Below, piece after piece: positions 1,421 through 15,444 of a DNA stretch of 15,497 nt. Source of the DNA: Abditibacteriaceae bacterium. Lineage in GTDB: Bacteria; Armatimonadota; Abditibacteriia; Abditibacteriales; Abditibacteriaceae. How positions within the stretch are numbered: the first letter of the stretch is position 1; each line of letters starts with the position of its first letter. Made by a program: the position numbers and the translations under genes. Location: assembly GCA_031372065.1 (NCBI GenBank), contig JANMKN010000144.1, positions 1 through 15,497 on the forward strand, written 5' to 3'. Below the pieces are notes generated by a model. That model was not told the DNA's origin. It saw only the letters and a program-made list of their open reading frames with translations, and ran no database searches.

Positions 1421-4400
1421 CTACGGCAATATTAAACGCAGGCCTTTCGTGTCGCCTAACGTGAGCGTTTGCTTGAGGAAGTTGGAATCGTTATCGGCGA
1501 GGGTGAGCGACAAGCGGAACGGCGCGCTTCCGGCCAGAGTTTTCGGCATCGTCAGCGCATACAGGGTGTTCCCACCTTCGCGCGTGATCGTTGTCTGGAT
1601 ATTTGGTGTTCCGGTTGCGACTGATTTGCCGCCGACAAGTCCGGCTGTCGCGTCCACGAGCGTTTTTCCTGCCTCATCGCGCATGAAAACACGCAAGCTA
1701 TCGGCGTTTTTGAGTTCGTTCGCACTGGGCGCTTCAACCAGTTGGTCGTCCGTCACCGCAACATACAGGTGCAGGTTTGCACCGCTTTCGCGCAGCCAGA
1801 CGAGGGCCAACAAATCTTTTTCGCCCTTATACCAGCGCGATTGTTCGGGTTCTTTGACAAAGAAGTTGGTGACGTTTTCGCCGCCTAAAACTGCGAGCGG
1901 CTGCAACGGCATCCAGTCGGCGCGCGTGGCCGGAATCGCGCCGCCCAACATCGGAATCGGTGCGCTAATTTGCACCGGCACGACTTGTTTGGACAACACT
2001 TTTCCCTTCGCCACAAGCGAAACGACCACGCGGTCGGGGTCGGTTCCGGCGCTGAGTGCCAGAGCGCGTTCTTTTGGCCCGCCGAACTCCAATTTCCAGC
2101 CGCCCGAACCGCTGAGAACAAGGACGGAGATGATGTTGCGGCCTTTTTTTAGCGGCAAATCGAAGGTGTGATCGGCCAAACCGCCGTGTTCGTTGCCCTT
2201 TTCGAGCGTGTTATAAACCTCGCGTCCGTTGACATTCCATCTCATATACCAGTCGGCGCTGGCCGCGACCGGCAAAACCATGTCGCGCGGCGCGTCTATT
2301 GTCGAAACCGCCAATGCCGCGCGCTTTTCGCCGAATCCGCCCGCCACGCGCGCGAGTTCCAAACGCTCTCCGCCGGGGAAACTTTGACTCGCAACAAATT
2401 GCCCTGTGACCGCGTTTTGAGCGCCCGCAACCGTGTCCGGCATCGAATTCAAAGCGTCGGGCGACAGTTTGGCGGCGTCCACATCGGTGAACACTTTCCA
2501 CCACGTCGGCAATGCAAGCGGCAAATCGGATTTGCTCAAAGCGACCGAAATTTGCGAGAAAACCGGCTCGCCATCGGCGCGCAGCATGATTTTCGCGGGC
2601 ATCGCCGTCGCTTTAATCGGCAAGCGCGCAAAAGTCTCAACCTTGATTTCGGCGGACTGCGCTTTTGCGTCGGGGTTGCGCGCCAAAACCGGAATTTGAG
2701 TCGTCGCGCCCACAAGCAACGGTTCTTCAGCGCGCACGGTTAACAGCAAAGGCGCGACATCAACTAAAGAAGTGGCTCCGCTCGACTGCCACGAAACGAA
2801 CATCGGTTCGATGCCGACAGGCACCGTGGCAATGTTGCCGGCAACGATTTTTGTAGGCGTTGCGTTGCCGAATAAATCGTAATTCTGCGCGCTCGTAACC
2901 TTGCCGCCGCGCGCGTCCAGACGCAGCGAGACATCGAACTGCGCCGGAGCTTCCGACCACGCCACAAGCGTTTTGCGGCCTGTAGCCGCGCCCTTAGCAT
3001 CGCGTTCTTCAAACAAATGCGCTTGAATTCCGGGCGCGCCCATCGCTTTGGCGAAATCCACATCTTTGACGAAATGGTGGTGGCGCAAGCGTTCAACTAA
3101 GTTGCGATACGCCATCACCGACGGGCGCGGCTCCAGGCGATGATCGGTCATGCCATAGCCGCCTTCGCTGCCGTCGCCTTCCATGAACAAGCGGAAAAAC
3201 ATGAAAGTTTCCATCCGCTGCGACTGCGCGTAGGTCAGTTTTTCGACTGTTGTGCGCGCTTGCTCCATCAAGCCATTGCGGTCGTTGCCCGAAAAGCCCG
3301 ATTCGGTTTCAATAAAGCGCGCGTTCGGCTTGCCGCCTTTGGCTGCCGCATCGCGCACGCGGTTCAAGTTGTCGCGCTCCGATTCGCCGCCTTTGCCGTG
3401 ACCGTGATACGCGATGGCATCGAACAATACGCCGTCCGCGATCTGAAGAAATTCGTAGGAACGCTTTTCGCCCTCCGGCCCGGCGAACGACAAACCGCCG
3501 TTCATCACAACGGTGGCTTCAGGCCCCAGTCCGCTTTGCGCCGCGCCTTTCTTGATGGCGGCGCGCATCTCTGCAAAAGCCTGTGCATATTCGGCCATCG
3601 TGCCGGGATAAAAGCCTCTCAAATCCGGCTCGTTGCCCAACTCCCAAAAGCGAATTTTGCCGAAGCCGCGTCCCGCATAAAGGCGAGCGATTTCTTCCAA
3701 TCGCGCGGCAGTTTTCGCCAACTCCTCGTTGCGGCGATTGGCATCGCCGTTTTTGGGAGGGTCAATCATCAACATACCGCGCATATTTTCGGCGCTCAGA
3801 CGTTGCAGCGATTTGCCGATGTCCGCGACGTTCTGCGGCCCCTCGTTTTTGCGGTGCAAATCGCGCAGAATATCCACGCCCATCAGGCGATAAAACGCCA
3901 TGCCGTTTTTGTCCTGCGTATCGAAAATGTAAGTGTTGGCGGCGTCGAGTCCGAAGAGAAACTCGCCATCGCGCGCTTTGGGCAAAATGGCGTTGCTGAC
4001 CACGCCTAAACGCAAAGTGCGCGTGTAAATCGGCGTCTTGTCGCTTTGCGCTAAAAACAGCGACAGCTTCGCGTCATAGGGGCCAAGCGGCCAACGGCTC
4101 GTGTCGAAAACAAGTGGCAGCGTCGTGTTCGCCCCGGCTGCGAGCGTGAGTGTTCCCGTTGCGCTGTGGCGATTTTTGTCGTCATAAGCGGACACGTCGA
4201 AACGATAAAACACGGGCCGCGCGACGCCTGCCTTATTTTGAATCGGCACGCGAATCTCGTGGCGCACCGCACGCAGAAAAACGAAAATCCCGCCCGCCGT
4301 GTCGGTTTCGATGGTGCCGGTTTGGAGCATCTGCGCCCAGTTCCCGTTTTCTTGCGGCGCGACGGCAACTCCAATCGGAGCTTCGGCAGCGAGTGCGGGC

Positions 4401-4477
4401 GTTGCGCTCGAAAGCGCCAGAACCAGCGCGCCAAGCAATTGCCCAAGCAACGCCGGAATGGGGTGTGATTTATTCAT
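1421..4477 (-). CDS. Secreted multidomain clan GH-A glycoside hydrolase (GH39-like TIM barrel) with Ig/beta-sandwich domains and a C-terminal CBM9/DOMON-like domain
   Basis: ATG at 4477 is preferred over 4576 because it opens a signal peptide (MNKSHPIPALLGQLLGALVLALSSATPALA-AE) and leaves room for the divergent promoter. Acid/base motif FWELGNEPD (Glu codon 3629-3631), DAIAYHGHG, nucleophile motif FIETESG (Glu codon 3302-3304). The C-terminal LHLYVAVTDD...ADSLRVF resembles a CBM9-like sugar-binding domain. 1018 aa. Confidence 0.75.
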   Translation of the reverse strand: MNKSHPIPALLGQLLGALVLALSSATPALAAEAPIGVAVAPQENGNWAQMLQTGTIETDTAGGIFVFLRAVRHEIRVPIQNKAGVARPVFYRFDVSAYDDKNRHSATGTLTLAAGANTTLPLVFDTSRWPLGPYDAKLSLFLAQSDKTPIYTRTLRLGVVSNAILPKARDGEFLFGLDAANTYIFDTQDKNGMAFYRLMGVDILRDLHRKNEGPQNVADIGKSLQRLSAENMRGMLMIDPPKNGDANRRNEELAKTAARLEEIARLYAGRGFGKIRFWELGNEPDLRGFYPGTMAEYAQAFAEMRAAIKKGAAQSGLGPEATVVMNGGLSFAGPEGEKRSYEFLQIADGVLFDAIAYHGHGKGGESERDNLNRVRDAAAKGGKPNARFIETESGFSGNDRNGLMEQARTTVEKLTYAQSQRMETFMFFRLFMEGDGSEGGYGMTDHRLEPRPSVMAYRNLVERLRHHHFVKDVDFAKAMGAPGIQAHLFEERDAKGAATGRKTLVAWSEAPAQFDVSLRLDARGGKVTSAQNYDLFGNATPTKIVAGNIATVPVGIEPMFVSWQSSGATSLVDVAPLLLTVRAEEPLLVGATTQIPVLARNPDAKAQSAEIKVETFARLPIKATAMPAKIMLRADGEPVFSQISVALSKSDLPLALPTWWKVFTDVDAAKLSPDALNSMPDTVAGAQNAVTGQFVASQSFPGGERLELARVAGGFGEKRAALAVSTIDAPRDMVLPVAASADWYMRWNVNGREVYNTLEKGNEHGGLADHTFDLPLKKGRNIISVLVLSGSGGWKLEFGGPKERALALSAGTDPDRVVVSLVAKGKVLSKQVVPVQISAPIPMLGGAIPATRADWMPLQPLAVLGGENVTNFFVKEPEQSRWYKGEKDLLALVWLRESGANLHLYVAVTDDQLVEAPSANELKNADSLRVFMRDEAGKTLVDATAGLVGGKSVATGTPNIQTTITREGGNTLYALTMPKTLAGSAPFRLSLTLADNDSNFLKQTLTLGDTKGLRLILP

Positions 4478-4565
4478 GATATTTTCTGAGAACGAACTCA
4501 TTACGCTCCATAATGTTGGCGCATAAGGACGACCTTTATTTTGCTCTTCCTCACCTGTAACTCTG

Positions 4566-4582
4566 TGGTATACCATATACCA
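4566..4582. promoter_or_regulatory. FadR-subfamily GntR operator (palindrome plus extra direct-repeat half-site)
   Basis: Perfect palindrome TGGTATACCA at 4566-4575 matches the core of the FadR-subfamily consensus TGGT-N2/3-ACCA (UxuR/ExuR/PdhR/LldR type). TATACCA occurs twice in tandem (4569-4575, 4576-4582). The site lies between the divergent GH gene and the FadR-type regulator. Confidence 0.75.
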
Positions 4583-4615: not shown

Positions 4616-5377
4616 ATGAAAAATATCCAGGAGTTTGAGGCTTTAGAGCGCGGGGCAACCCTGGCGAACCGGGTGGTAGCGCGCTTGGAGGGCATGATTG
4701 TCGAACAGGAATTGCGGCCTGGCGACCGCTTGCCGCCTGAACGAGAATTGGCGCGGCAGTTCGGAGTTTCGCGCACCGTGGTGCGTGAAGCCGTCACGCA
4801 TTTGAGCGCCAAGTCGTTGCTCCAAGCCGCTCCGGGCGGCGGTGCGCTCGTCAAAGTGCCCGACGCCGGTCATGTGTCGCAGGGCATGACGCTCCTGCTC
4901 TGCGCGGGAGAACGCAAAGTTCCCGGCCCACAGATTCAGGAAGTGCGCCGAATGTTAGAAACCGAAATCGCCGGATATGCCGCCCTGCGTCGCAGCACCG
5001 AAGACATCGCCGCGTTGCGTCAACTTTTGGACGAAATGGTGGTTTTGAATACGCGACACGACGAAGCAAGCCTGGAAAAGTTGGTCGCCAACGATGTCGG
5101 GTTTCACGCGGCCTTAGCGCGGGCCACGCAAAACCTGCTTTTCAGCGTGCTGTTGGATTCGGTTGCCGACATCATGCTCGCTGTGCGCCGGGTGGGACTT
5201 CGCATTGAAGACTCGCGCGTGGGCGCCCTCGCGCATCACCGCGCCATTTTCGCGGCGGTCGAGGCGGGCAGTGAAAGCGCCGCGCGCACTGCGATGGGCC
5301 ATCATCTGACGGAATCGGAGGCTGTGATGCAGCGCGCCATGACAAAAATGGCCGAGGAGACGACTCCGACAGCATGA
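4616..5377 (+). CDS. GntR family transcriptional regulator, FadR subfamily (wHTH + FCD domain)
   Basis: wHTH motif LRPGDRLPPERELARQFGVSRTVVREA. FCD motifs RRMLETEIA, DVGFHAALARATQN, HHRAIFAAV and MGHHL. RBS-like gagagg 5 nt before the ATG. Confidence 0.95.
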   Translation: MKNIQEFEALERGATLANRVVARLEGMIVEQELRPGDRLPPERELARQFGVSRTVVREAVTHLSAKSLLQAAPGGGALVKVPDAGHVSQGMTLLLCAGERKVPGPQIQEVRRMLETEIAGYAALRRSTEDIAALRQLLDEMVVLNTRHDEASLEKLVANDVGFHAALARATQNLLFSVLLDSVADIMLAVRRVGLRIEDSRVGALAHHRAIFAAVEAGSESAARTAMGHHLTESEAVMQRAMTKMAEETTPTA

Positions 5378-6438
5378 CGACGCCGATGGGACAAATCTCT
5401 GCTTCTTCACAACATCCGTCGCCGCTGCGATTCGCCATTTTCGGCACTGGTTTCTGGGCACGCTTCCAACTCGCCGCATGGCGCGAGCTGGAAGGCGTGC
5501 AGTGCGTGGCGCTTTTCAATCGCACTGTCGCCAAAGCACAGCAATTGGCGGCGCAGTTTGATATTCCGGCGGTTTATGGCGACGCGGAAGCACTTTTAAA
5601 AGCGGAGCGGCTGGATTTTCTCGACATTATCACCGACGTGGAAACGCACCCGCGCTTTGTCGAAATGGCGGCCAAATACGGCGTTCCGGTCATCTGCCAG
5701 AAGCCGATGGCGCCCAATTTGGAAACGGCGCGCCGCATGGCTCAAACCTGCCGCGCGGCGGGAATTCCCTTGTGGATTCACGAAAATTGGCGTTTTCAAA
5801 CCCCGATTCAAGCACTTAAAGCCGAACTGGAACGCGCGCCGATTGGCACGCCGTTTCGCTTCAACCTCAAGATGGTGACGGGCTTTCCCGTTTTCGCCAA
5901 CCAGCCTTTCCTCAAAGAATTGGAGCAATTTCTCATCGCCGATTTGGGTTCGCATCTTTTTGATGTGGTTCGGTTCTTGGCCGGTGAAGCCCAAAGCGTT
6001 TATTGCACCACGCAACGCATCCATACCGATATTCGCGGCGAAGATTGCGTCACGGCCACTTTCATAATGCAAAGCGGCGCGACGGTGGTTTGCCAGATGG
6101 CTTATGCCGAAAATTTCCTTGAAGTCGAACGCTTTCCCGAAACCCTGATTTTCGTCGAAGGGTCGCACGGTTCGATTGAATTGGCGCCCGATTGCTGGAT
6201 TCGCACCACAACCCGCGAAGGCACCTTCGCCAAACGCGCCGTGCCACATCATTATGCGTGGGCAGACCCGGCTTACGACTTGGTTCACGCCTCGATTGTG
6301 CCCTGCAACGCCGATATCTTGGCCGATGTGCGCGGCGAACGCGCTGCCCAGACACGCGCCGAGGATAATTTGAAGACCGCCGAACTGGTCTTTGCCGCTT
6401 ACGAGTCCACCGCGCGAAACCAAGTGGTGACGCTCTAA
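5374..6438 (+). CDS. apsD: Gfo/Idh/MocA oxidoreductase, D-apiose dehydrogenase (ApsD)-like
   Basis: Rossmann motif IFGTGFWA, CQKPMA, IHENWRFQTPIQA, VFANQPFL, IADLGSHLFDVVRFL, IRGED, RFPETLI and DNLKTAELVFAAYES. These match the ApsD subgroup as I recall it (CQKP rather than CEKP; HENxR; QPxL; FPETL). Adjacent to an ApnL-like gene. ATGA overlap with the regulator stop. The family call is firm; the substrate is inferred. Confidence 0.8.
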   Translation: MTTPMGQISASSQHPSPLRFAIFGTGFWARFQLAAWRELEGVQCVALFNRTVAKAQQLAAQFDIPAVYGDAEALLKAERLDFLDIITDVETHPRFVEMAAKYGVPVICQKPMAPNLETARRMAQTCRAAGIPLWIHENWRFQTPIQALKAELERAPIGTPFRFNLKMVTGFPVFANQPFLKELEQFLIADLGSHLFDVVRFLAGEAQSVYCTTQRIHTDIRGEDCVTATFIMQSGATVVCQMAYAENFLEVERFPETLIFVEGSHGSIELAPDCWIRTTTREGTFAKRAVPHHYAWADPAYDLVHASIVPCNADILADVRGERAAQTRAEDNLKTAELVFAAYESTARNQVVTL

Positions 6439-6439
6439 A

Positions 6440-8309
6440 ATGAACACGATTTTACGCGCCGGCCCCTTGCAGTTGGTTTATGGAAACGGCGAAGTTCGCA
6501 GCCTCACTTTGGAATCAAGTGGCATTGAGGTCGTGCGCCGCATTTACGGCGCCGTCCGCGACCGCAACTGGGGCACGGTTCCGCTGCGAATTACTAACGA
6601 AAAAATCGAGGATGGCGGCGACCATTTTCATGTTTCGTTCGACGCGCTGCACACTCAGGCTTCGCACGGACTCAGAGGCAACTCGCGCAACGACATCGAG
6701 TTTCAATGGCACGGCGAGATTCGCGGCGGCGCCAATGGAACCGTTGTTTTCTCTTTCGATGGTCGGGCCAAAACTACCTTTGAACGCAATCGCATCGGCT
6801 TTTGCGTGCTGCATCCGATTCGAGAATGCGCGGGCGTGGCGGCCCGTGTCGAACAAAATGGAAGCATCGAAAACGCCCGCTTTCCGCGTCAAATCGCGCC
6901 GCACGAGCCGTTTCAAGACATCACGGCTCTCTGCCATCAAGTCGCGCCCGACCTGTGGGCGCGACTGGCATTCGAGGGCGAGGTTTTTGAAACCGAAGAC
7001 CAGCGCAACTGGATTGACGCGAGTTTCAAAACTTTTTCCACGCCACTTTCGCTGCCGTGCCCAGTGACGGTCGAAGCCGGAACGCACGTTTGGCAAAGCG
7101 TCACCTTAGATTTTTTGGGGTCAGTGCCTTCACAGGCAGGGCCGCACAACTCCCCCATTCTAAACCGCGACCCTCGAAAACAAGCCGTGCGCGTTGCCGT
7201 TGAGGCGGAGTCGGCGACAAGACTTGCGCCCATTGGCCTTTGTGTAGCAACAGTGGACGCTCCCAGCCAAGGGCAGCCTTTGATGCCGCGCGAAATCGAG
7301 GCGCTTCGGATGCTCCATTTAAATCACCTCCGCGTTGACCTGACTTTGCACAGTGATTATCAAGCCGCCTTGCGGCAGGCGGCGGGCGGCGGGCGAAGCG
7401 AATCTGCTGAATTGCGCTTTGGAAATCGCGGTTTTTCTGGGCCGTGAAAGCCCGGAAGCCATGCCGGAAGCCTTGCGGCAAGACGAAACTGCGCTGCTCC
7501 TTTCGCTGGCGGCACTTTTGGACGAACTCGCAACGCCGGTTCACGCTTTCCTCATTTTTGCCGATAATTTGCGGCCCGCGCCACGCAGCGTTTTGTTGGA
7601 AGCGCGGCGGATTTTAGGTCGCTTTGCGCCGGTTGGAAGCGGCTCAAACGCCAATTTCGCCGAATTCAATCGCCAGCCGATGGACGCGGAGGCGCTCGAT
7701 AGAGTGTCCTTCGCGGCGAATCCTCAGGTTCATGCCTTCGACGACCAATCGGTGATGGAAACACCCGAAGCCCTGCCCCACGTCGTGCAAAGTGCGCGCG
7801 TGCTGTTTCCCGGCAAAGGGGTGAGCATTTCTCCGCTCACTCTCAAACCACGCTTCAACGCCGTCGCCCTCGGCCCGGAGCGCGTGCCGCTCCCCGGCGA
7901 ATTGCCGCCGAATGTGGATGAGCGTCAAAAAGAGCCGTTCTGTGCGGCGTGGACGTTAGCTGTGCTGGCTGCACTGGCGCAAAGCGGGTTCGGCAGTGAA
8001 CACGACGGCTCGAAGATGAACGGGCCAGGAGACAGCCTGACGCTCTTTGAAACCATCGGCCCGCGCGGTGTGATGGACGAAGGCGGCCCGTTCCCCGTTT
8101 TTGAAGTGCTGCGCCAGATCGCACTTTTCAGGGGGCAAAAAGTGTATGGCACCACATCCACCGATGCACGGCGGGTGGCCGCTCTGGCCTTTCAAAGCGC
8201 ACTTTTTGTGGCAAATCTGAGCGACGAAACCCAAGCGGTGGATATTGAGGGACGGCAAGCGGAACTTTTGCCTTACGAAGTGCGGAAAATCGAGAGGAAA
8301 TCGTGTTAA
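6440..8309 (+). pseudogene. apnL: D-apionate lactonase (ApnL)-like gene split by a frameshift near 7379-7392 (real lesion or sequencing error)
   Basis: The N-half ORF 6440..7447 has LRAGPL, VRDRNWGT, NRIGFCVLHPI and FETEDQRNWIDASFKTFSTPLSLP. The C-half, in another frame (7353..8309), has NFAEFNR, NPQVHAFDDQSVMET and DERQKEPFCAAWT. Both sets match ApnL as I recall it. Removing one GCGGCGG unit joins them as ...LRQAAGEANLL..., giving 620 aa. Confidence 0.8.
7372..7395. repeat. 7-bp-period tandem repeat at the apnL frameshift
   Basis: GCGGCAG-GCGGCGG-GCGGCGG-GCG at 7372-7378, 7379-7385, 7386-7392 and 7393-7395. Confidence 0.85.
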
Positions 8310-8325
8310 AAGGATTCAGAAAATC

Positions 8326-9247
8326 ATGAAATTCGCAATTATTTGGCGGCACCGGCGCCATGGGCGGCGCTTTAGGCGCGGCGTTGTTCGAGGGCGGCCA
8401 CGAGGTTGTTCTGGTTGATGTCGCGCGCGAAGCGGTTGAGAAAATCAACGCCGATGGCCTGCACATCACCGACAAAAGCGGCGCAACGCGCGCAGTGCGC
8501 GTTCCAGCGACGCTTTCGCCCACCGAAACCGGCGCGGTGGATGTCGTTGTTGTGTTCGTGAAATGCTATCACACCGAAACCGCGATGCGCGCTGCCGCGC
8601 CGTTGCTGGGGCCGCAAACCGTCGTGCTTTCGTTGCAAAACGGTTGGGGAAACGCCCCGCGCATCGCGCAAATCGTGGGGGAAGAGCGCGTTTTGGTCGG
8701 CGTCACCTACCACTCGGCCATACTGGTGGAAGCAGGCCACATTCGACATTCGGGAGTCGGCAAAACCTTGCTGGGCGAACTGGGAGGCACTGTCACACCG
8801 CGCCTCGAACAGGTTGCCGGCGCGCTGAGAGACGCGGGATGGGAAGTCGAAGTCTCGACCGATATTCGCAGCAAAATCTGGGGAAAATTAGCGCTTAACG
8901 TCTGCACGCTGCCCACCTCGGCTTTGCTGCGTTTCACGGCGGACGAACTTCCCAAGCATGAGGGCATATGCCGTCTGATGCGCGCGTTGCTCCATGAAAC
9001 CATCGAGGTCGCCCAGGCGCAAAATATCGCGCTCAATTTCCATGAGCGATGGGACGCCATTATTTCGCTGCTGGAAAAAGCGGTCGGGGCCAAAAGTTCG
9101 ATGCTGCAAGATGTCGAGCGCGGTCGCAAAACCGAAATTGATGTGATTAACGGCGCCATCTGCGAGGCCGGAACACGACTTGGCATTCCGACCCCTTACA
9201 ACGACGCGCTGCTGTCGCTGGTGAAGGCTTTGGAGGAAACATTTTAA
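8326..9247 (+). CDS. panE: Ketopantoate reductase (PanE/ApbA) family 2-hydroxyacid dehydrogenase with an apparent +1 frameshift after codon 6 (intact ORF 8360..9247)
   Basis: Motifs VFVKCY, LSLQNGWGN, IWGKLALN (catalytic Lys) and KSSMLQDVERGRKTEIDVINGAI (catalytic Glu). ATG8326 reads MKFAII, then one extra T, then GGTGAMGG, which is the Rossmann start. The symbol denotes the family only. Confidence 0.85.
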
Positions 9248-9270
9248 AACCCAAACTTCGATTTTTTGGC

Positions 9271-10008
9271 GTGGCGGCGTATGAAATCGTCAATGCGCGC
9301 GGCCAGCACATCCTGCTCGATCCGTTTTTAGATGAGAATCCCGGTTCGCCGGTCAAGTCGCACGAGTTGGAGCACGTTGATTTAATTGTCGTATCGCACG
9401 CGGCCTTCGACCATCTGGGCGACACGGAAACTCTGGCAAAACGCACCGGCGCACCTGTTGTCTGTGGCGGCGAGGTCAAGGCGTATCTGGTGGCCAAGGG
9501 CGTTCCCTCCGAGCAGATTCGCGCTACGACGTGGGGCATCCGCGTCGAAGTCGCGGGTGTAGAAATACAGCCCGTCGAATGTCATCACTGGTCGCAAATC
9601 CAGATGCCGGACGGCACCTTTGCTTCGGGTGTGCCGATGGGATTCGTCGTGGATGTCGCTGAGGACGTGCGGTTTTACCATTATGGCGACACGGCAATTT
9701 TCAGCGATTTGAAGCTCTTCGGCGAACTTTACAGGCCGACTATCGGCTGTTTTGGCATCGCCAACCCGCTCGAAATTCTGCATCGCATCAGCGCGCCGGG
9801 GCGGATGATGACGGCGGAAATGAATCCGCGCGAAGGCGCTCTGGCGGCGCAGTGGATCGGCGTGCAAACCGCGTTGCCCTGCCACTTTATCAATCCCGAT
9901 TGCCCCGAAGTCCGCGAATTCAATTTGCATCTGGAAACTGCGCGCGAGCAAGGCCACAGCGTGCCCAAATCGGTGGTTCTGGCGCCGGGAGACTGGCTGG
10001 AGCTTTAA
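9271..10008 (+). CDS. Metallo-beta-lactamase-fold hydrolase (UPF0173/UlaG-like); true start probably ~9241-9244
   Basis: ILLDPFL, SHAAFDHLGD (variant of HxHxDH), ECHHWS, YHYGDTAIFSDL, MNPREGALAAQW, LPCHF and LAPGD. The in-frame upstream LKPKLRFFG looks like the first beta-strand of the fold. Confidence 0.85.
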   Translation: MAAYEIVNARGQHILLDPFLDENPGSPVKSHELEHVDLIVVSHAAFDHLGDTETLAKRTGAPVVCGGEVKAYLVAKGVPSEQIRATTWGIRVEVAGVEIQPVECHHWSQIQMPDGTFASGVPMGFVVDVAEDVRFYHYGDTAIFSDLKLFGELYRPTIGCFGIANPLEILHRISAPGRMMTAEMNPREGALAAQWIGVQTALPCHFINPDCPEVREFNLHLETAREQGHSVPKSVVLAPGDWLEL

Positions 10009-10009
10009 A

Positions 10010-10151
10010 AGATAGTCGAAAAGTAGCGGCGACTCCCTTCCCCTTTGCCGTATCAAGGGGAAGGGCCGGGGATGGGGTTGCCGTTAAGCCGCAGAACCCC
10101 ACCCTAACCCTCCCCTTAAACGGCAAGGGGAGGGGACTTTTCAGACTATCT
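10010..10151. mobile_element. MITE-like/boxC-like nested palindromic intergenic element
   Basis: Terminal inverted repeats agatagtc-gaaaagt (10010-10024) and acttttcagactatct (10136-10151) match at 15/16 with one indel. Two inverted inner units each carry a perfect hairpin: cccttcccctt/aaggggaaggg (10035-10065) and ccctcccctt/aaggggaggg (10108-10134). Tails ggggatggggtt / aaccccaccctaa. Confidence 0.7.
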
Positions 10152-10159
10152 CAAACATT

Positions 10160-11206
10160 ATGCAAGCAATCATCATGGACGCGCCCGGTGCGATGCGCGT
10201 GGGAGAATGGGACACGCCTCGGCCTGGTGCGGGCGAAGTGTTGGTGCGCGTCGAAGCTGTGGGCATTTGCGTCGGAGACACCCACATTTACGCCGGCAAA
10301 AGTCCTTATGCCAAATTTCCCGTTATCGGCGGACACGAAATCGCCGGAGTCATCGAAGCCACAGGGGAAAGCGTCGCGGATTTTGCCGGCGGTGAGCGCG
10401 TGGTCGTCGAGCCGTTTTTGGGATGCGGAACCTGCTATCCGTGTCGCATCGGCAAATCGAATTGCTGCGCCGACCTGCAAATCATCGGGGTGACGCGGCC
10501 CGGAGGGTTTGCGGAGTTCGTTTTGGCGCCCGCAACTCATGTGCATCGGGTGCCCGAAGGTTTATCCGTTTTTGAAGCCGCGTTTGCCGAGCCGGTTGCG
10601 ATTGGCGTGCAGGCTTGTCGCCGTGCCCAGTTGGGCGAAGGTGAATCGGTGCTGATTTTAGGTTGCGGGCCGATTGGTCTGGCGCTCATTGAAGTGGCAC
10701 GGGCACACGGCGCGCAGGTATTTGCTGCCGATGTGCGAGCCGAACGCCGCGAATTCGCCGCAACTCTGGGAGCGCATACCTTCGACGGCGCCGACCTTTT
10801 GCCCGCCATCATGGAATTGACAAACGGCGAAGGGATGCCCGTAGTCATCGAAGCGACCGGCGTGCCCGCCGTGATGGAACAAACCGTTTCTCTGGTTGCC
10901 TCCGGCGGGCGCGTGGTCATCGTGGGCCTGGCCAAGCGCGGCGAAGGCGTCACCTTTCCGGGCCTCGATTTCACGCGCAAGGAACTCACGGTTTTAGGTT
11001 CGCGCACCTCGGTTGACTGTTTTCCCGAAGCCCTCCAACTTTTAGTGGATAGTCACATCACTTATCCGCGCGTTGCTACGCCGCTTTGCCTGTGGGACTC
11101 TCCACAAATCTTCGCGGAAATGGCTCGCAACCCCGAAAAAATGCACAAAGGCGTGCTGCTTCCCACCATTCCTGCTCTGGAATCTAAAATTGAGCCAATC
11201 TCATGA
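10160..11206 (+). CDS. Zinc-dependent medium-chain alcohol dehydrogenase, sugar-acid dehydrogenase type (L-galactonate/L-gulonate 5-dehydrogenase-like)
   Basis: Catalytic Zn motifs GICVGDTH and GHE, structural Zn motif CGTCYPCRIGKSNCC, NAD motif GCGPIG, and C-terminal KELTVLGSR. Confidence 0.9.
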   Translation: MQAIIMDAPGAMRVGEWDTPRPGAGEVLVRVEAVGICVGDTHIYAGKSPYAKFPVIGGHEIAGVIEATGESVADFAGGERVVVEPFLGCGTCYPCRIGKSNCCADLQIIGVTRPGGFAEFVLAPATHVHRVPEGLSVFEAAFAEPVAIGVQACRRAQLGEGESVLILGCGPIGLALIEVARAHGAQVFAADVRAERREFAATLGAHTFDGADLLPAIMELTNGEGMPVVIEATGVPAVMEQTVSLVASGGRVVIVGLAKRGEGVTFPGLDFTRKELTVLGSRTSVDCFPEALQLLVDSHITYPRVATPLCLWDSPQIFAEMARNPEKMHKGVLLPTIPALESKIEPIS

Positions 11207-12021
11207 AAATCTACCGTTTCACGCATCAACAAAAGACTTATTTAGGTGTCGAGGAAAATGGCGCTTTAGTGCCGTTTCAAGGCATCGAAAACTTTCAAAG
11301 CTGGCTGCAAAACCCAGACGTTGAAAAGGAACAGCGGACTTTTTCCTTTGAAAAAGTCGAACTTTTAGCGCCTTTGCTGCCCGGCAAGATTCTGTGTTCG
11401 GGCGTCAATTATCGCGGTCACATCGAAGAGAATCCGGCGGCGAAATTTCCCGACTTCCCCTTTTTCTTCGCCAAACTGCCAAGCGCAGTTATTGGCCCCG
11501 GCGTGCCGATTATTAAACCCACGATGACGGCGCAACTCGATTATGAGGTAGAATTCGCGGTCGTTCTGGGCAAATCCATTCACCACGCGACGCCCGCCGA
11601 AGCCCTCGACGCCGTTTGGGGCTACACGATTCTCCACGACGTTTCAGCGCGCGATGTCCAGTTCACCGACGCCCAAATCACATTGGGAAAAAACTTCGAC
11701 ACTTTTGCTCCCATCGGCCCTTGTCTGGTTTCGCGCGATGAAATCCCCGACCTGAGCGATGTGCATCTTCGCACTTTCGTCAACGGCGAGATTTTGCAAG
11801 ACGGCTCGACGAGCGATTGGGTGTTTCCTTTGGGCGAACTGCTGGGACATCTGTCGCAGGTTATGACGCTGCAAGCGGGCGACCTCATTACAACGGGCAC
11901 GCCGGCAGGTGTCGGCTATTTTCGTTCACCACAACGCTTTTTGGTCGAGGGCGACACCGTAGTGCTGGAAATCGAGGGCATTGGCCGCTTGGAAAATCCT
12001 GTCATCGGTCAAAGCGCCTGA
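11203..12021 (+). CDS. Fumarylacetoacetate hydrolase (FAH) family protein
   Basis: GVNYRGH, FFAKLPS, LDYEVEF, HDVSARD, GKNFDTFAPIGP and GDLITTGTPAGVG. ATGA overlap with the upstream stop. Confidence 0.93.
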   Translation: MKIYRFTHQQKTYLGVEENGALVPFQGIENFQSWLQNPDVEKEQRTFSFEKVELLAPLLPGKILCSGVNYRGHIEENPAAKFPDFPFFFAKLPSAVIGPGVPIIKPTMTAQLDYEVEFAVVLGKSIHHATPAEALDAVWGYTILHDVSARDVQFTDAQITLGKNFDTFAPIGPCLVSRDEIPDLSDVHLRTFVNGEILQDGSTSDWVFPLGELLGHLSQVMTLQAGDLITTGTPAGVGYFRSPQRFLVEGDTVVLEIEGIGRLENPVIGQSA

Positions 12022-12431
12022 TGCAAAAACTCGAACACCTTGGACTCGATCATCTCGCCATCGTCGTGCCTGACACCGAAGCGGCGCTTGTGGTTTGGCG
12101 CGACCATTTCGGGTTTCCGGTTTTGTATTCCGAAAAAGTCGCCGGCGACACCGTTCTGCTCACTCATCTCGATTTGGGAAACGTGCAATTACAGCTCGTT
12201 GAACCTCTCGTTGAAAACCACCCGTTGCAACTGTGGCTGCGCGAAAATGGGCCGGGCCTGCATCACTTTTGCTTGAAAGTGGAAGACATCGGTGATTCTC
12301 TCGAAGCGATGACGAAACTGGGGCTGGCTTCAAGTTCTGTCGCGCCGCATCAGGGAACGCAGGGCAAGCGCGCCCTGTTCTTGGATAAAAACGCCGCGAT
12401 GGGCGTTCAAGTGGAGCTAACCGGTGATTAA
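12021..12431 (+). CDS. VOC family protein (methylmalonyl-CoA epimerase/glyoxalase-like)
   Basis: ATG at 12021 overlaps the FAH stop (TGATG); the ORF-track start at 11817 lies inside the FAH gene. Metal-ligand motifs LDHLAIVV, QLQLVEP, GLHHFCLKVEDI and GVQVELT. 136 aa. Confidence 0.88.
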   Translation: MQKLEHLGLDHLAIVVPDTEAALVVWRDHFGFPVLYSEKVAGDTVLLTHLDLGNVQLQLVEPLVENHPLQLWLRENGPGLHHFCLKVEDIGDSLEAMTKLGLASSSVAPHQGTQGKRALFLDKNAAMGVQVELTGD

Positions 12432-13815
12432 AGCGGATTTATTAGCCGCTCTGCCTCCGATTTGGCCCCACGACTTGAGCGGTGGCATCGCGGATCATTT
12501 GAGCCGGTTAAATCGAACCATCGTCGTGCTGGACGATGACCCGACCGGCACTCAAACTGTGTTTAACGTGCCCATTCTCACCGTTTGGGATATGGAAACG
12601 CTGACGGCGGAACTGGAAACACAATCGCCGATTTTCTATGTTCTCACCAACTCGCGTGCGCTCACCAGCGCACAGGCGGGCCAACTCGCGCATGAAATTG
12701 GGCGCAATTTGCGCGCGGCCAGCGCGGCGTCTGGTCGGGACATCGAAATTCTCTCGCGCGGCGACTCGACGCTGCGCGGCCATTTTCCCGGTGAAGTCGA
12801 AGCTCTGGCCGACGGATTAGAAACTTCCTTCGATGCGACTTTGCTCGTCCCCGCGTTTTTCGAGGGTGGGCGTTTTACGCTCGGCGATGTGCATTACGTG
12901 CAGGAAGGCGAAAACTGGTTGGAAGCCGCTTCGACGCCTTTCGCGCGCGATGCCGCGTTTGGCTACACCCGCTCGAATTTGCGCGAATGGGTCGAAGAAA
13001 AAACGGCGGGGCGTGTGCGCGCCGCTGACGTGGCCTCGCTTTCTCTTGAAGCTTTGCGCGCCGGGCCGCAAAAAGTTTTAAAGCGCCTTTTGACACTACC
13101 CCAAGGCGCGATTTGCGTGGTCAACGCGCTCGAAGACCGTGATTTGGAGGTTTTGTGCCTCGCGTGGCTCCAATCGGAACGCAAAATAGTGGCGCGCTGC
13201 GCCGCGTCTTTGGTGCCGATTCGGGCCGGACAAAAGCGCCGCGAACTGCTTTCACTGGGAGAATTGGGCTTGCCCGCAAGCGGCGGAACCTTAGTGGTCG
13301 CCGGTTCCTACGTTCCCAAAACAACAGCGCAACTCGCGCAATTAGAAGCGCGCCTGAGCATCCAAAAAATCAAAGTCGAAGTCGCGCGCGTGCTCAATAA
13401 AACCGAGCGTGATGGCGCGATTCGAGAAGCGATTGAGGCGATGAACGGTGCGCTCGCCGCTGAAAAAGACGTATTGCTTTGCACCTCACGCGCGCTCGTC
13501 ACGGGCTGCGATGCAGCGGCGAGCCTGCAAATCGGCGCGCGAATTTCGACGGCTCTGGTGGAAATCGTGAGCGGACTTAAGCAGCGCCCACGCTGCGTGG
13601 TGGCCAAAGGCGGCATCACTTCGAGCGACCTGGCGACCAAAGCCTTCGGTGTGCGCCGCGCGCTGGCGCTTGGCCCCATTGCGTCGGGAGTTCCTGTTTG
13701 GAAATTAGAAAAACAGTGCCGCTTTCCCGAACTGATTTACGTTGTATTTCCTGGAAATGTCGGAGATGAAGCGGCTCTTGCAAAGGTCGTAGAGAAAATC
13801 AGTGTCAGGAACTGA
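12424..13815 (+). CDS. Four-carbon acid sugar kinase family protein (DUF1537; SBD_N + NBD_C)
   Basis: VVLDDDPTGTQTV, LTNSRAL, SRGDSTLRGH, PAFFEGGR, AGSYVPKTTAQL, AKGGITSSD and FPGNVG. GTG start with GGAG 7 nt upstream. Confidence 0.92.
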   Translation: MIKADLLAALPPIWPHDLSGGIADHLSRLNRTIVVLDDDPTGTQTVFNVPILTVWDMETLTAELETQSPIFYVLTNSRALTSAQAGQLAHEIGRNLRAASAASGRDIEILSRGDSTLRGHFPGEVEALADGLETSFDATLLVPAFFEGGRFTLGDVHYVQEGENWLEAASTPFARDAAFGYTRSNLREWVEEKTAGRVRAADVASLSLEALRAGPQKVLKRLLTLPQGAICVVNALEDRDLEVLCLAWLQSERKIVARCAASLVPIRAGQKRRELLSLGELGLPASGGTLVVAGSYVPKTTAQLAQLEARLSIQKIKVEVARVLNKTERDGAIREAIEAMNGALAAEKDVLLCTSRALVTGCDAAASLQIGARISTALVEIVSGLKQRPRCVVAKGGITSSDLATKAFGVRRALALGPIASGVPVWKLEKQCRFPELIYVVFPGNVGDEAALAKVVEKISVRN

Positions 13816-13909
13816 AATTCCGACGGGTTTCGCAGACGATTTTACCGAATCAAGCGACTCAATCGGTGACGGCTCAGGCCGGCGCCGGGGCAATCCCCGC
13901 CCTTGTGCT

Positions 13910-14956
13910 ATGAACATTTCAACTCAAAACGTCGCCGTCCGGCGCGAATTACTTACACAATTGTTTCCGAGCGGTATCCCACGCCTGTGGTGTCCGGCTT
14001 TGACGCACTTTTCCGACGCTCAAACGCCCGATTTTGCGCGCATTGAAACGCATCTGCAAAAACTCGCGCCCGATGTGCGCGGGCTGCTTATTCCCGGCTC
14101 GACCGGCGAAGGCTGGGAAATGAGTGATGCCGATATTCGCGGTTTGCTCCAAGGCGTTTTACCGCTCGCCAAAGCCAACGGGCAGAGCGTTTTAATCGGC
14201 GTTTTGAAGACCACCACGCCCGCTGTATTGCAGTGCTTGCAGGACACAATTTCATGGTTGGTCGAAACTTCCGGCGCGAGTTCGCCGCTTGAAGCAATGC
14301 AAAAAATGGGCGTCGTTGGCTTTACCGTTTGTCCGCCGCAGGGCGCGGATTTGTCGCAAAACGAAATCGAAAGCGCGTTGCGGCAAGTCTTGCAAATCGG
14401 CGTTCCAACGGCGCTTTATCAATTGCCGCAAGTGACACAAAATGAAATGGCGCCGGAATTGGTGGCGAAATTGGCGGCGGAATTTCCCAATTTTTTGCTT
14501 TTCAAAGATACCAGCGGGCGGGATGTCGTCGCCAATTCGCGCCTCGATTTGGGCGGCGTATTTTTGGTGCGCGGCGCAGAAGGCCATTACTGCGATTGGA
14601 CAAAAGCCGGGGGCGGCGTTTACGATGGACTTTTGCTTTCGACGGCGAATGTTTTCGCGCCGCAATACAGCGAAATTTTCCGGCTGCTGGACGCCGGTGA
14701 AACCGAAAACGCAGCGCAGCTTTCTGCGCGCGTTTCGCAAGTTGTCGCCGCCGGTTTTGAATTGGCGGGCGGAATTGCGCTCGGAAATCCGTTCACCAAC
14801 ACGAACAAGCTCTTCGACCACGTTTTGGCGCACGGCAAAAAGGCGCTCGAAGTCGCGCCGCCGCTACTCTATTCGGGCACGCGATTGCCGCAAAGCGCGG
14901 TGCAAAGCGCAGCGGAATTGCTCGAAAAAGCGGGGCTGGCTCAAGAAAATATGTGA
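13910..14956 (+). CDS. Dihydrodipicolinate synthase / N-acetylneuraminate lyase family class I aldolase
   Basis: GSTGEG carboxylate-binding motif, LYQLPQVT (Tyr) and FKDTSG (Schiff-base Lys, codon 14504-14506). ATG 13910 is preferred over GTG 13802, whose extension overlaps the kinase gene and looks non-coding. Confidence 0.85.
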   Translation: MNISTQNVAVRRELLTQLFPSGIPRLWCPALTHFSDAQTPDFARIETHLQKLAPDVRGLLIPGSTGEGWEMSDADIRGLLQGVLPLAKANGQSVLIGVLKTTTPAVLQCLQDTISWLVETSGASSPLEAMQKMGVVGFTVCPPQGADLSQNEIESALRQVLQIGVPTALYQLPQVTQNEMAPELVAKLAAEFPNFLLFKDTSGRDVVANSRLDLGGVFLVRGAEGHYCDWTKAGGGVYDGLLLSTANVFAPQYSEIFRLLDAGETENAAQLSARVSQVVAAGFELAGGIALGNPFTNTNKLFDHVLAHGKKALEVAPPLLYSGTRLPQSAVQSAAELLEKAGLAQENM

Positions 14957-15154: not shown

Positions 15155-15436
15155 TTATTTTTGATTACGCTGAGCCCAACGCTTCTTTTGTGATTTTGAA
15201 ATCTGCTCTTTGGTCTCGGCGCTGACCGAGATGCCTGCGGGGCGTCCGCCCTTCCTGCCCGGCCTGCCGGCATATTTCACCGGCTCCCAAGTATGCACGT
15301 CGGATTCCTTGACACCCATGTGCCCTAAAATCAGGACATGGGGCAACCGGCCATCAGCGATGGCCGCGTAAACGGCGGAGCGGGACACTCCCTTGAATTT
15401 GGCGGCTTCGGCAACCGTGAGCAGTTTGGCGGACAT
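15155..15436 (-). CDS. Small excisionase-like HTH (HTH_17/MerR-like) DNA-binding protein with GRP motifs and a NUMOD3-like basic tail
   Basis: LLTVAEAAKFKGVSRSAVYAAIADGRLP is a typical Xis-type HTH, followed by GRPGRKGGRP and SAETKEQISKSQKKRW. ATG 15436 (93 aa) lies just downstream of a perfect extended -10 box. Confidence 0.85.
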   Translation of the reverse strand: MSAKLLTVAEAAKFKGVSRSAVYAAIADGRLPHVLILGHMGVKESDVHTWEPVKYAGRPGRKGGRPAGISVSAETKEQISKSQKKRWAQRNQK

Positions 15437-15444
15437 TTCCACTG

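Follow-up and report, generated by a model that had tools for sequence, protein, structure and literature searches.

Apiose is a widespread sugar of plant cell walls, and three oxidative routes that take D-apiose through D-apionate (routes 1-3) were reportedly laid out by Carter et al. in 2018. According to the available parts of a 2026 study (PMC13753588), known apiose routes treat the branch mainly by rearrangement and decarboxylation and not by direct removal; the same text assigns a C2(R) hydroxyl to D-apionate and considers, as a possible but disfavoured mechanism of the enzyme ApnO, that formaldehyde is released once C2 is oxidised. For the three-step L-threonate route, the accessible text of another paper (PMC12540250) relates the kinase domain of LTD to the 2-oxo-tetronate kinase (2-OtnK), whose partner in this route is an FBA-II protein. 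Here we analysed a contig of 15,497 nucleotides (JANMKN010000144.1, assembly GCA_031372065.1, from an Abditibacteriaceae bacterium; hereafter the window), which carries an operon opening with ApsD-like and ApnL-like genes, as in an oxidative apiose route, and continuing with a different set of enzyme genes. We propose, as an evenly balanced judgement, that it encodes an ApnO-independent oxidative D-apiose route that removes the branch carbon. The link between ApsD/ApnL-like and tetronate-like steps has no counterpart in the four published apiose routes as given in the available parts of PMC13753588, and the gene set is undescribed in the literature searched (open-licence papers and bioRxiv, without supplements; supplementary figures of PMC13753588 or PMC12994016 could show it).

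Results

A conserved module behind apsD/apnL-like genes

The window spans an entire contig of a genome that measures 6.1 Mb and is 93.9% complete. A FadR gene and nine enzyme genes, all on the + strand, occupy 4616-14956; such a FadR-preceded, co-oriented run had been claimed from the sequence in an earlier reading (the original prediction), and both coordinates and Pfam matches (GntR/FCD, Gfo/Idh/MocA, ApbA, Lactamase_B_2, ADH_N, FAA_hydrolase, Glyoxalase_4, SBD_N+NBD_C, DHDPS) bear it out. Gaps between genes range from -14 to +16 nt, with the sole exception of 151 nt ahead of the zinc-dependent dehydrogenase (ZnADH).

4616..5377, + strand: FadR/GntR-FCD regulator (Pfam); relatives adjoin the module described below in 9 of 73 loci
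5374..6438, + strand: ApsD-like Gfo/Idh/MocA dehydrogenase, which would convert D-apiose to apionolactone (PDB match 5UHW)
6440..8309, + strand: ApnL-like lactonase, frameshifted, pieces 6440-7447 and 7353-8309 (NF049900)
8326..9247, + strand: PanE/ApbA-family 2-hydroxyacid dehydrogenase, NAD+-type, frameshifted (TIGR00745)
9241..10008, + strand: UPF0173-like metalloenzyme of the metallo-beta-lactamase (MBL) fold (Pfam, motif alignment, structure model)
10009..10159, no strand: intergenic palindromic repeat (31 blastn matches in the genome)
10160..11206, + strand: ZnADH, RspB/polyol type (NCBIfam PRK10083, PDB 4ILK)
11203..12021, + strand: FAH-family C-C hydrolase/decarboxylase (Pfam, PDB matches)
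12021..12431, + strand: VOC protein, putative C3 epimerase of 2-oxo-tetronate (nearest: methylmalonyl-CoA epimerases)
12424..13815, + strand: DUF1537 kinase, LTD / 2-oxo-tetronate kinase type (identity to LTD, tree)
13802..14956, + strand: DHDPS-family protein, its gene overlapping the kinase gene (Pfam)

The conservation of this set was assessed around relatives of the MBL gene. We pooled 77 loci, 69 from metagenomes (five with 30-34% MBL identity left out) and 8 others, and kept the 73 with an MBL identity of at least 55%, many of them on short contigs. PanE was found in 47 of these loci, ZnADH in 40, FAH in 29, Gfo in 13, ApnL in 12-13, VOC in 12, the kinase in 11 and ApnO in 3. After collapsing at 90% nucleotide identity, 54 lineages remained; apsD/apnL occurred in 13, and PanE was also present in all 13. 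Among the 19 MBL loci that have 2.5 kb of sequence to either side, 13 contained PanE, ZnADH and FAH together and 12 an apiose marker; three of the 19 were found via Gfo and a fourth came from one of those genomes, so these are not independent. At the scale of whole genomes, an ApnL-like gene was present in all 11 with a close MBL relative and in all 7 found by MBL-only searches; within the class Anaerolineae it accompanied MBL in 4/4 carriers against a background of 24/301. Named carriers comprise Verrucomicrobiota (L075, L076, L082), Chloroflexota (G838, G901, G915, G952), two genomes of the window's phylum and the alphaproteobacterium Mesorhizobium sp. INR15. The module was rare in every sample (3/301, 1/251, 4 close relatives in 401 and 2/251 genomes). 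Its genes recur in shuffled order across the four named phyla at 53-75% identity with catalytic motifs kept; PanE mostly stays beside MBL, and in some lineages the pair has just one of ZnADH and FAH nearby. That PanE, MBL, ZnADH and FAH form a conserved module is well supported, and with VOC and DUF1537 the set co-occurs with apnL in other phyla, in support of the original prediction. A retro-aldol role for the DHDPS-like protein, suggested at the same time, had to be dropped: the gene is not conserved with the module, occurring in none of the 73 MBL loci or 80 Gfo loci, and none of 26 family relatives (E ≤ 1e-40) lies with it.

Two other arrangements came to light in these searches. A second non-canonical module (GHMP kinase, cyclase, SDR, NAD-epimerase family, 2-hydroxyacid dehydrogenase) lies beside apsD/apnL-like genes in L064, L187, L195, L196 and L205, and four of these loci also have the same ZnADH; an Rpe domain is fused to the 2-hydroxyacid dehydrogenase in L064 and L163. 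A more distant MBL subfamily (45-46%) stands beside ApnO, a TIM barrel and an LtnD-like gene in L199 and L201.

The upper pathway is apiose-like and the ApnO-based lower pathway was not found

The ApsD-like protein matched PDB entry 5UHW with an E-value of 3e-74 (about 40% identity, counted from the alignment), the next structure following at 8e-18, and the Mesorhizobium copy likewise placed 5UHW far ahead of other Gfo structures. We take 5UHW to be ApsD, its PDB label reading only 'Oxidoreductase protein'; some Gfo relatives bear the Joint Genome Institute (JGI) name D-apiose dehydrogenase. Because ApnL-like (35), ApnO-like (PF16896, PDB 5T57; 31) and apiosidase-like genes (19) recur near 80 relatives, the Gfo family can be tied to apiose; OiaK-like and RuBisCO-like genes were found in 15 and 14 of the same loci. 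The ApnL-like gene is without a Pfam match and matches a single NCBIfam model, NF049900, in two pieces of 198 and 87 bits for a cut-off of 750, a value that no protein passed in two samples of 301 genomes. With these matches and this neighbourhood, the naming of the first two genes as ApsD-like and ApnL-like stands, and from homology their products would make D-apionate. Apiosidase-like genes lie on other contigs of the window genome.

Variations on this upper part were seen elsewhere. L075/L082 carry two ApsD-like paralogues. In L087, L090, L091 and L204 a related SDR precedes the MBL or apnL-like gene and no Gfo was seen nearby; it may be the alternative apiose dehydrogenase to which the available text of PMC13753588 refers. 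L099, L101 and L160 have a small ABM-family gene between the Gfo and apnL-like genes, possibly encoding a mutarotase.

Searches for ApnO, OiaK and the RuBisCO-like protein in the window genome returned no tblastn match at E ≤ 1e-3 with all locus-derived members as queries, and the ApnO family PF16896 had none either; the lack of ApnO and RuBisCO-like genes first remarked in the window extends to the 93.9%-complete genome. OiaC-like TIM barrels reached at best 26-28% identity (the query being the barrel beside ApnO, assumed to be OiaC), and for the transketolase apiose route, matches to transketolase halves reached 30-37% identity on another contig. The original prediction would have been refuted by a canonical lower pathway elsewhere in the genome together with a set not conserved with apnL; it stands here because the lower pathway was not found in the genome and the set is conserved with apnL. 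Its stronger claim, that the set replaces the lower pathway, agrees with this absence and conservation but fails as strict replacement of ApnO. The 11 whole genomes that carry a close relative of MBL are incomplete; ApnO was present in 5 of them, absent in 5 and reduced to a 41-residue stop-bearing fragment in 1, which rules out strict mutual exclusion. In G901 and G952, one operon holds ApnO, a TIM barrel, a GHMP-kinase/cyclase module, PanE and MBL; since both are present there, the module is not simply an ApnO substitute.

PanE, MBL, ZnADH and FAH

The PanE protein scored 252.7 bits with TIGR00745, above the cut-off of 141.35. Its catalytic Lys/Glu and an Asp ending strand beta-2 were found in 35/35 aligned sequences; an Asp at this position marks NAD+ use. 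In the MBL protein, HAAFDH replaces the HxHxDH motif, the second His being absent (Ala or Pro) in all 51 aligned sequences while the other ligand motifs are kept. Its predicted structure (predicted local distance difference test, pLDDT, 97.4) has 3X2Y, 7E3W and 6HRG as nearest folds; UPF0173 proteins came first in the fold search, which indicated no mechanism, and an Atlas search gave generic MBL clusters only. Because the second His is lost in 51/51, MBL is our first candidate for the cleavage step, as a retro-aldolase or deformylase; it could also be a plain lactonase.

For ZnADH, the top NCBIfam model was PRK10083 (228 bits) and the top PDB match RspB (4ILK). The idea of a thiol-dependent formaldehyde dehydrogenase is weak, since those models reached 89-116 bits against 228 for the RspB-like one. 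PDB matches of the FAH protein were 8SKY, 6IYM, HpcE and the 2,4-diketo-3-deoxyrhamnonate hydrolase 8GSR. In the L-rhamnonate 2,4-diketo acid route, a C4 dehydrogenase works with an FAH hydrolase.

The kinase points to a four-carbon 2-oxo acid

The DUF1537 kinase shares 45% identity with the kinase domain of Arabidopsis LTD, and the two fall in one clade supported at 99/98, apart from OtnK and OiaK. It scored 53.8 bits with the 3-OtnK model NF043035, under the cut-off of 350, and had no match in a PDB sequence search. Its link to the 2-OtnK of Arthrobacter ZBG10 runs via LTD, as described in the accessible text of PMC12540250. Three kinds of ending were seen elsewhere: L122 and L143 have an FBA-II gene 3' of this kinase type (53% to the C-terminal domain of LTD); Mesorhizobium INR15 has OtnK (509 bits, cut-off 350) and a split OtnC that are transcribed divergently from the module; and three proteins (P0241, P0242, P0243) naturally combine a 2-OtnK-type kinase and an ApnL-like domain in one chain. 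Because these three independent endings converge, we favour an oxo-tetronate as the product of the module.

In 11 of the 21 kinase loci listed (one a duplicate), VOC immediately precedes the kinase; its nearest known relatives are methylmalonyl-CoA epimerases. In two plain tetronate clusters, an Asp/Glu racemase-family gene precedes the kinase at the place of VOC; in L083 and G838, a racemase-family gene precedes MBL. Because an epimerase-type gene precedes the kinase, the substrate of the latter would have to be a 2-oxo acid that is linear and bears a hydrogen at C3.

The same kinase type was seen in a cluster on a Chondrinema plasmid (L178:6137-12725), with an isocitrate/isopropylmalate-family dehydrogenase, a cyclase, an MFS protein and a Gfo (32% to the window's); possibly this is another route for a branched or tartrate-like acid.

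The copy in this genome is damaged

Three genes of the operon carry lesions, which the original prediction missed, as it did the kinase's pointer to a four-carbon 2-oxo-tetronate. The apnL-like gene is without a single intact frame of about 600 residues: a 7-nt tandem duplication, placed using 22 intact relatives, switches the frame near 7380-7395. In panE, whose ATG stands at 8326, an additional base at 8342 throws the reading out of frame directly behind the start. Ahead of its conserved first strand the MBL gene is without an ATG, possible starts being only ATT at 9241 or GTG at 9271. Contigs from two runs of the same study (X2 and X3) span the apnL break with letters identical to the window; run X1, a possible source of the window, was left out of the count of supporting runs. 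The extra panE base is present in the main X2 contig and absent in a related strain (X4, plus a minor X2 contig). In a genome-wide frameshift test, 1/91 genes was frameshifted, namely apnL. The matching contigs and this low rate exclude an assembly error, and because the breaks are bridged and only apnL is frameshifted among 91 genes, the lesions are real and local. The window's operon has probably lost its function. Split genes were also found elsewhere, in L162, L100 and the Mesorhizobium otnC.

Around the operon, promoter and terminator scans gave a signal near chance level. At the repeat (10009-10159), other letters stand in the related strain X4. Divergent from the operon, 1421-4576 (- strand) encodes a 1051-residue protein with a signal-like N-terminus and without a Pfam or NCBIfam match; we presume that its WELGNEPD motif is that of clan GH-A glycoside hydrolases. 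A secreted-looking BNR/sortilin-repeat protein (Pfam; 1-1362, - strand) is cut by the contig end, and we take it to resemble xyloglucanase-type beta-propellers. An excisionase-like HTH_17 open reading frame lies at 15155-15442, near the other contig end.

Discussion

The proposed route would begin with the formation of D-apionate by the ApsD-like and ApnL-like enzymes, for which homology and context are observed. The NAD+-type PanE would then oxidise the C2(R) hydroxyl to give 2-oxo-apionate, an assignment that we make because apionate is a pantoate analogue, with its hydroxyl next to a quaternary carbon. Removal of one hydroxymethyl arm would yield 2-oxo-tetronate, in one of two forms that we consider about equally likely: oxidation by ZnADH followed by hydrolysis of a 2,4-dioxo acid by FAH or MBL, the branch leaving as formate, or a retro-aldol reaction on MBL releasing formaldehyde. 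The presence of two dehydrogenases and FAH matches loss as formate. Finally, VOC would set the C3 configuration and the kinase, whose 2-OtnK-type family assignment is observed, would phosphorylate the product; a 2-OtnC-type aldolase, encoded elsewhere or replaced by the DHDPS-like protein, would produce dihydroxyacetone phosphate and CO2. The original prediction had already suggested that PanE might oxidise C2, VOC epimerise and DUF1537 phosphorylate, all of which fits the evidence. More tentative, and in our view rather doubtful, is the full form of the idea: a fifth apiose pathway in which a PanE homologue runs in reverse on apionate, a ligand-lacking MBL cleaves a C-C bond and the branch leaves as formaldehyde or formate.

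Several observations weigh against this route. RspB-type ZnADHs usually oxidise secondary alcohols, whereas the arms of apionate are primary. A formaldehyde-detoxifying family was absent among the 124 neighbour proteins scanned (of 225 candidates), and this operon has no 2-OtnC partner, the best FBA-II matches reaching 38-40%. Intact ApnL-like relatives score 292-478 bits, far under the NF049900 cut-off. The module is also uneven: 3/19 well-covered MBL loci are without any partner gene, searches of G952 turned up neither a close ZnADH nor a close FAH and those of G901 no FAH, the kinase was without a match in G838 and G1111, and L101 ends in a transketolase pair. ApnO lies in the same operon as the module in G901, G952, L110, L118 and L121, and the module may serve another substrate in ApnO-bearing genomes.

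The alternative that survives best, although we hold it unlikely, is a split ApnO: PanE would oxidise C2 and MBL shift the hydroxymethyl group to give 3-oxo-isoapionate, which would then be processed along the lines of the known routes by FAH, by a promiscuous pair of kinase and decarboxylase, or by a transketolase. PanE is indeed the commonest partner of MBL (47/73), the altered binuclear MBL site recalls the metal-dependent isomerisation by ApnO, and the transketolase pair of L101 is divergent from the module. However, the kinase sits outside the OiaK clade, the upstream epimerase would have no role on a quaternary carbon, and the frequent sharing of an operon by ApnO and MBL would be redundant.

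Quite unlikely, too, is a tetronate pathway merely located beside apiose genes, with PanE as a threonate/erythronate 2-dehydrogenase, MBL as a tetronolactonase, VOC and kinase as a three-step lower route, and apionate handled elsewhere or not at all. It would leave unexplained why 6/11 genomes without intact ApnO keep apnL-like genes and why three proteins join the kinase to ApnL; moreover, the two plain tetronate clusters are without PanE or MBL, their NAD(P)-dependent oxidoreductases being differently annotated. It gains from the presence of ApnO in 5/11 genomes, from tetronate clusters reported beside ApnO genes (available parts of PMC13753588 and PMC12994016) and from the kinase type, which belongs to the three-step L-threonate route (accessible text of PMC12540250).

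We regard as improbable that the operon degrades another branched sugar acid, such as aceric acid of rhamnogalacturonan-II, by ApsD/ApnL paralogues. The low ApnL-like scores and the two ApsD-like paralogues of L075/L082 speak for such a substrate, which would explain the coexistence with ApnO and would suit ZnADH, as a secondary alcohol, and FAH, as a substituted oxaloacetate. Yet an apiosidase-like gene lies 3' of MBL in L087 and within the G838 cluster, and aceric acid itself is a 5-deoxy sugar without the terminal hydroxyl that tetronate kinases require, its C2 configuration being opposite to that of the (R)-acids of PanE. That the operon is merely a set of mobile catabolic genes brought together by chance or in decay, forming no single pathway, as the three lesions here, the split genes in L162, L100 and the Mesorhizobium otnC and the very patchy distribution might suggest, is highly improbable, since four named phyla hold the same genes, differently ordered, at 53-75% identity and with their catalytic motifs kept.

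If the branch-removing route is true, it would add new chemistry and join apiose and tetronate catabolism, with direct removal of a hydroxymethyl group from apiose feeding the latter and, should MBL carry out the cleavage, a new reaction for the MBL fold. It would also give functions to an unnamed MBL subfamily and to a PanE subfamily prone to mis-annotation as pantothenate biosynthesis. Mesorhizobium sp. INR15, a cultured carrier, makes the pathway testable; intact orthologues are encoded on its plasmid NZ_CP045498.1 and in L075/L174.

Compared with known systems, the proposed route shares with routes 1-3 an ApsD-like dehydrogenase, an ApnL-like lactonase, C2 oxidation as committed step and a DUF1537 kinase, but the window genome yielded neither ApnO nor OiaK nor a RuBisCO-like gene, and the kinase is of another clade; branch removal is direct, whereas the published one, in the available parts of PMC13753588, consists of rearrangement and C1 decarboxylation. 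The three-step L-threonate route (LtnD, 2-OtnK, 2-OtnC; Arthrobacter ZBG10) and plant LTD resemble it by the kinase (45%) and by FBA-II in L122/L143; here, entry is from a five-carbon branched acid via PanE/MBL, and the operon is without LtnD and 2-OtnC. OtnK and OtnC of the four-step tetronate route (OtnI, OtnK, OtnC) flank the module in Mesorhizobium INR15, but the window kinase is not OtnK and no OtnI was seen in the INR15 cluster. As in the L-rhamnonate 2,4-diketo route, a dehydrogenase and FAH pair could cleave a 2,4-dioxo acid; the window FAH, however, scores 162.6 for a cut-off of 500, and the leaving group would be formate. With ketopantoate reductase PanE, finally, the module's enzyme has in common the fold, the catalytic Lys/Glu and a 2-hydroxy acid with a quaternary C3, and differs from it by its acidic NAD+-type residue, its catabolic context and the proposed oxidative direction.

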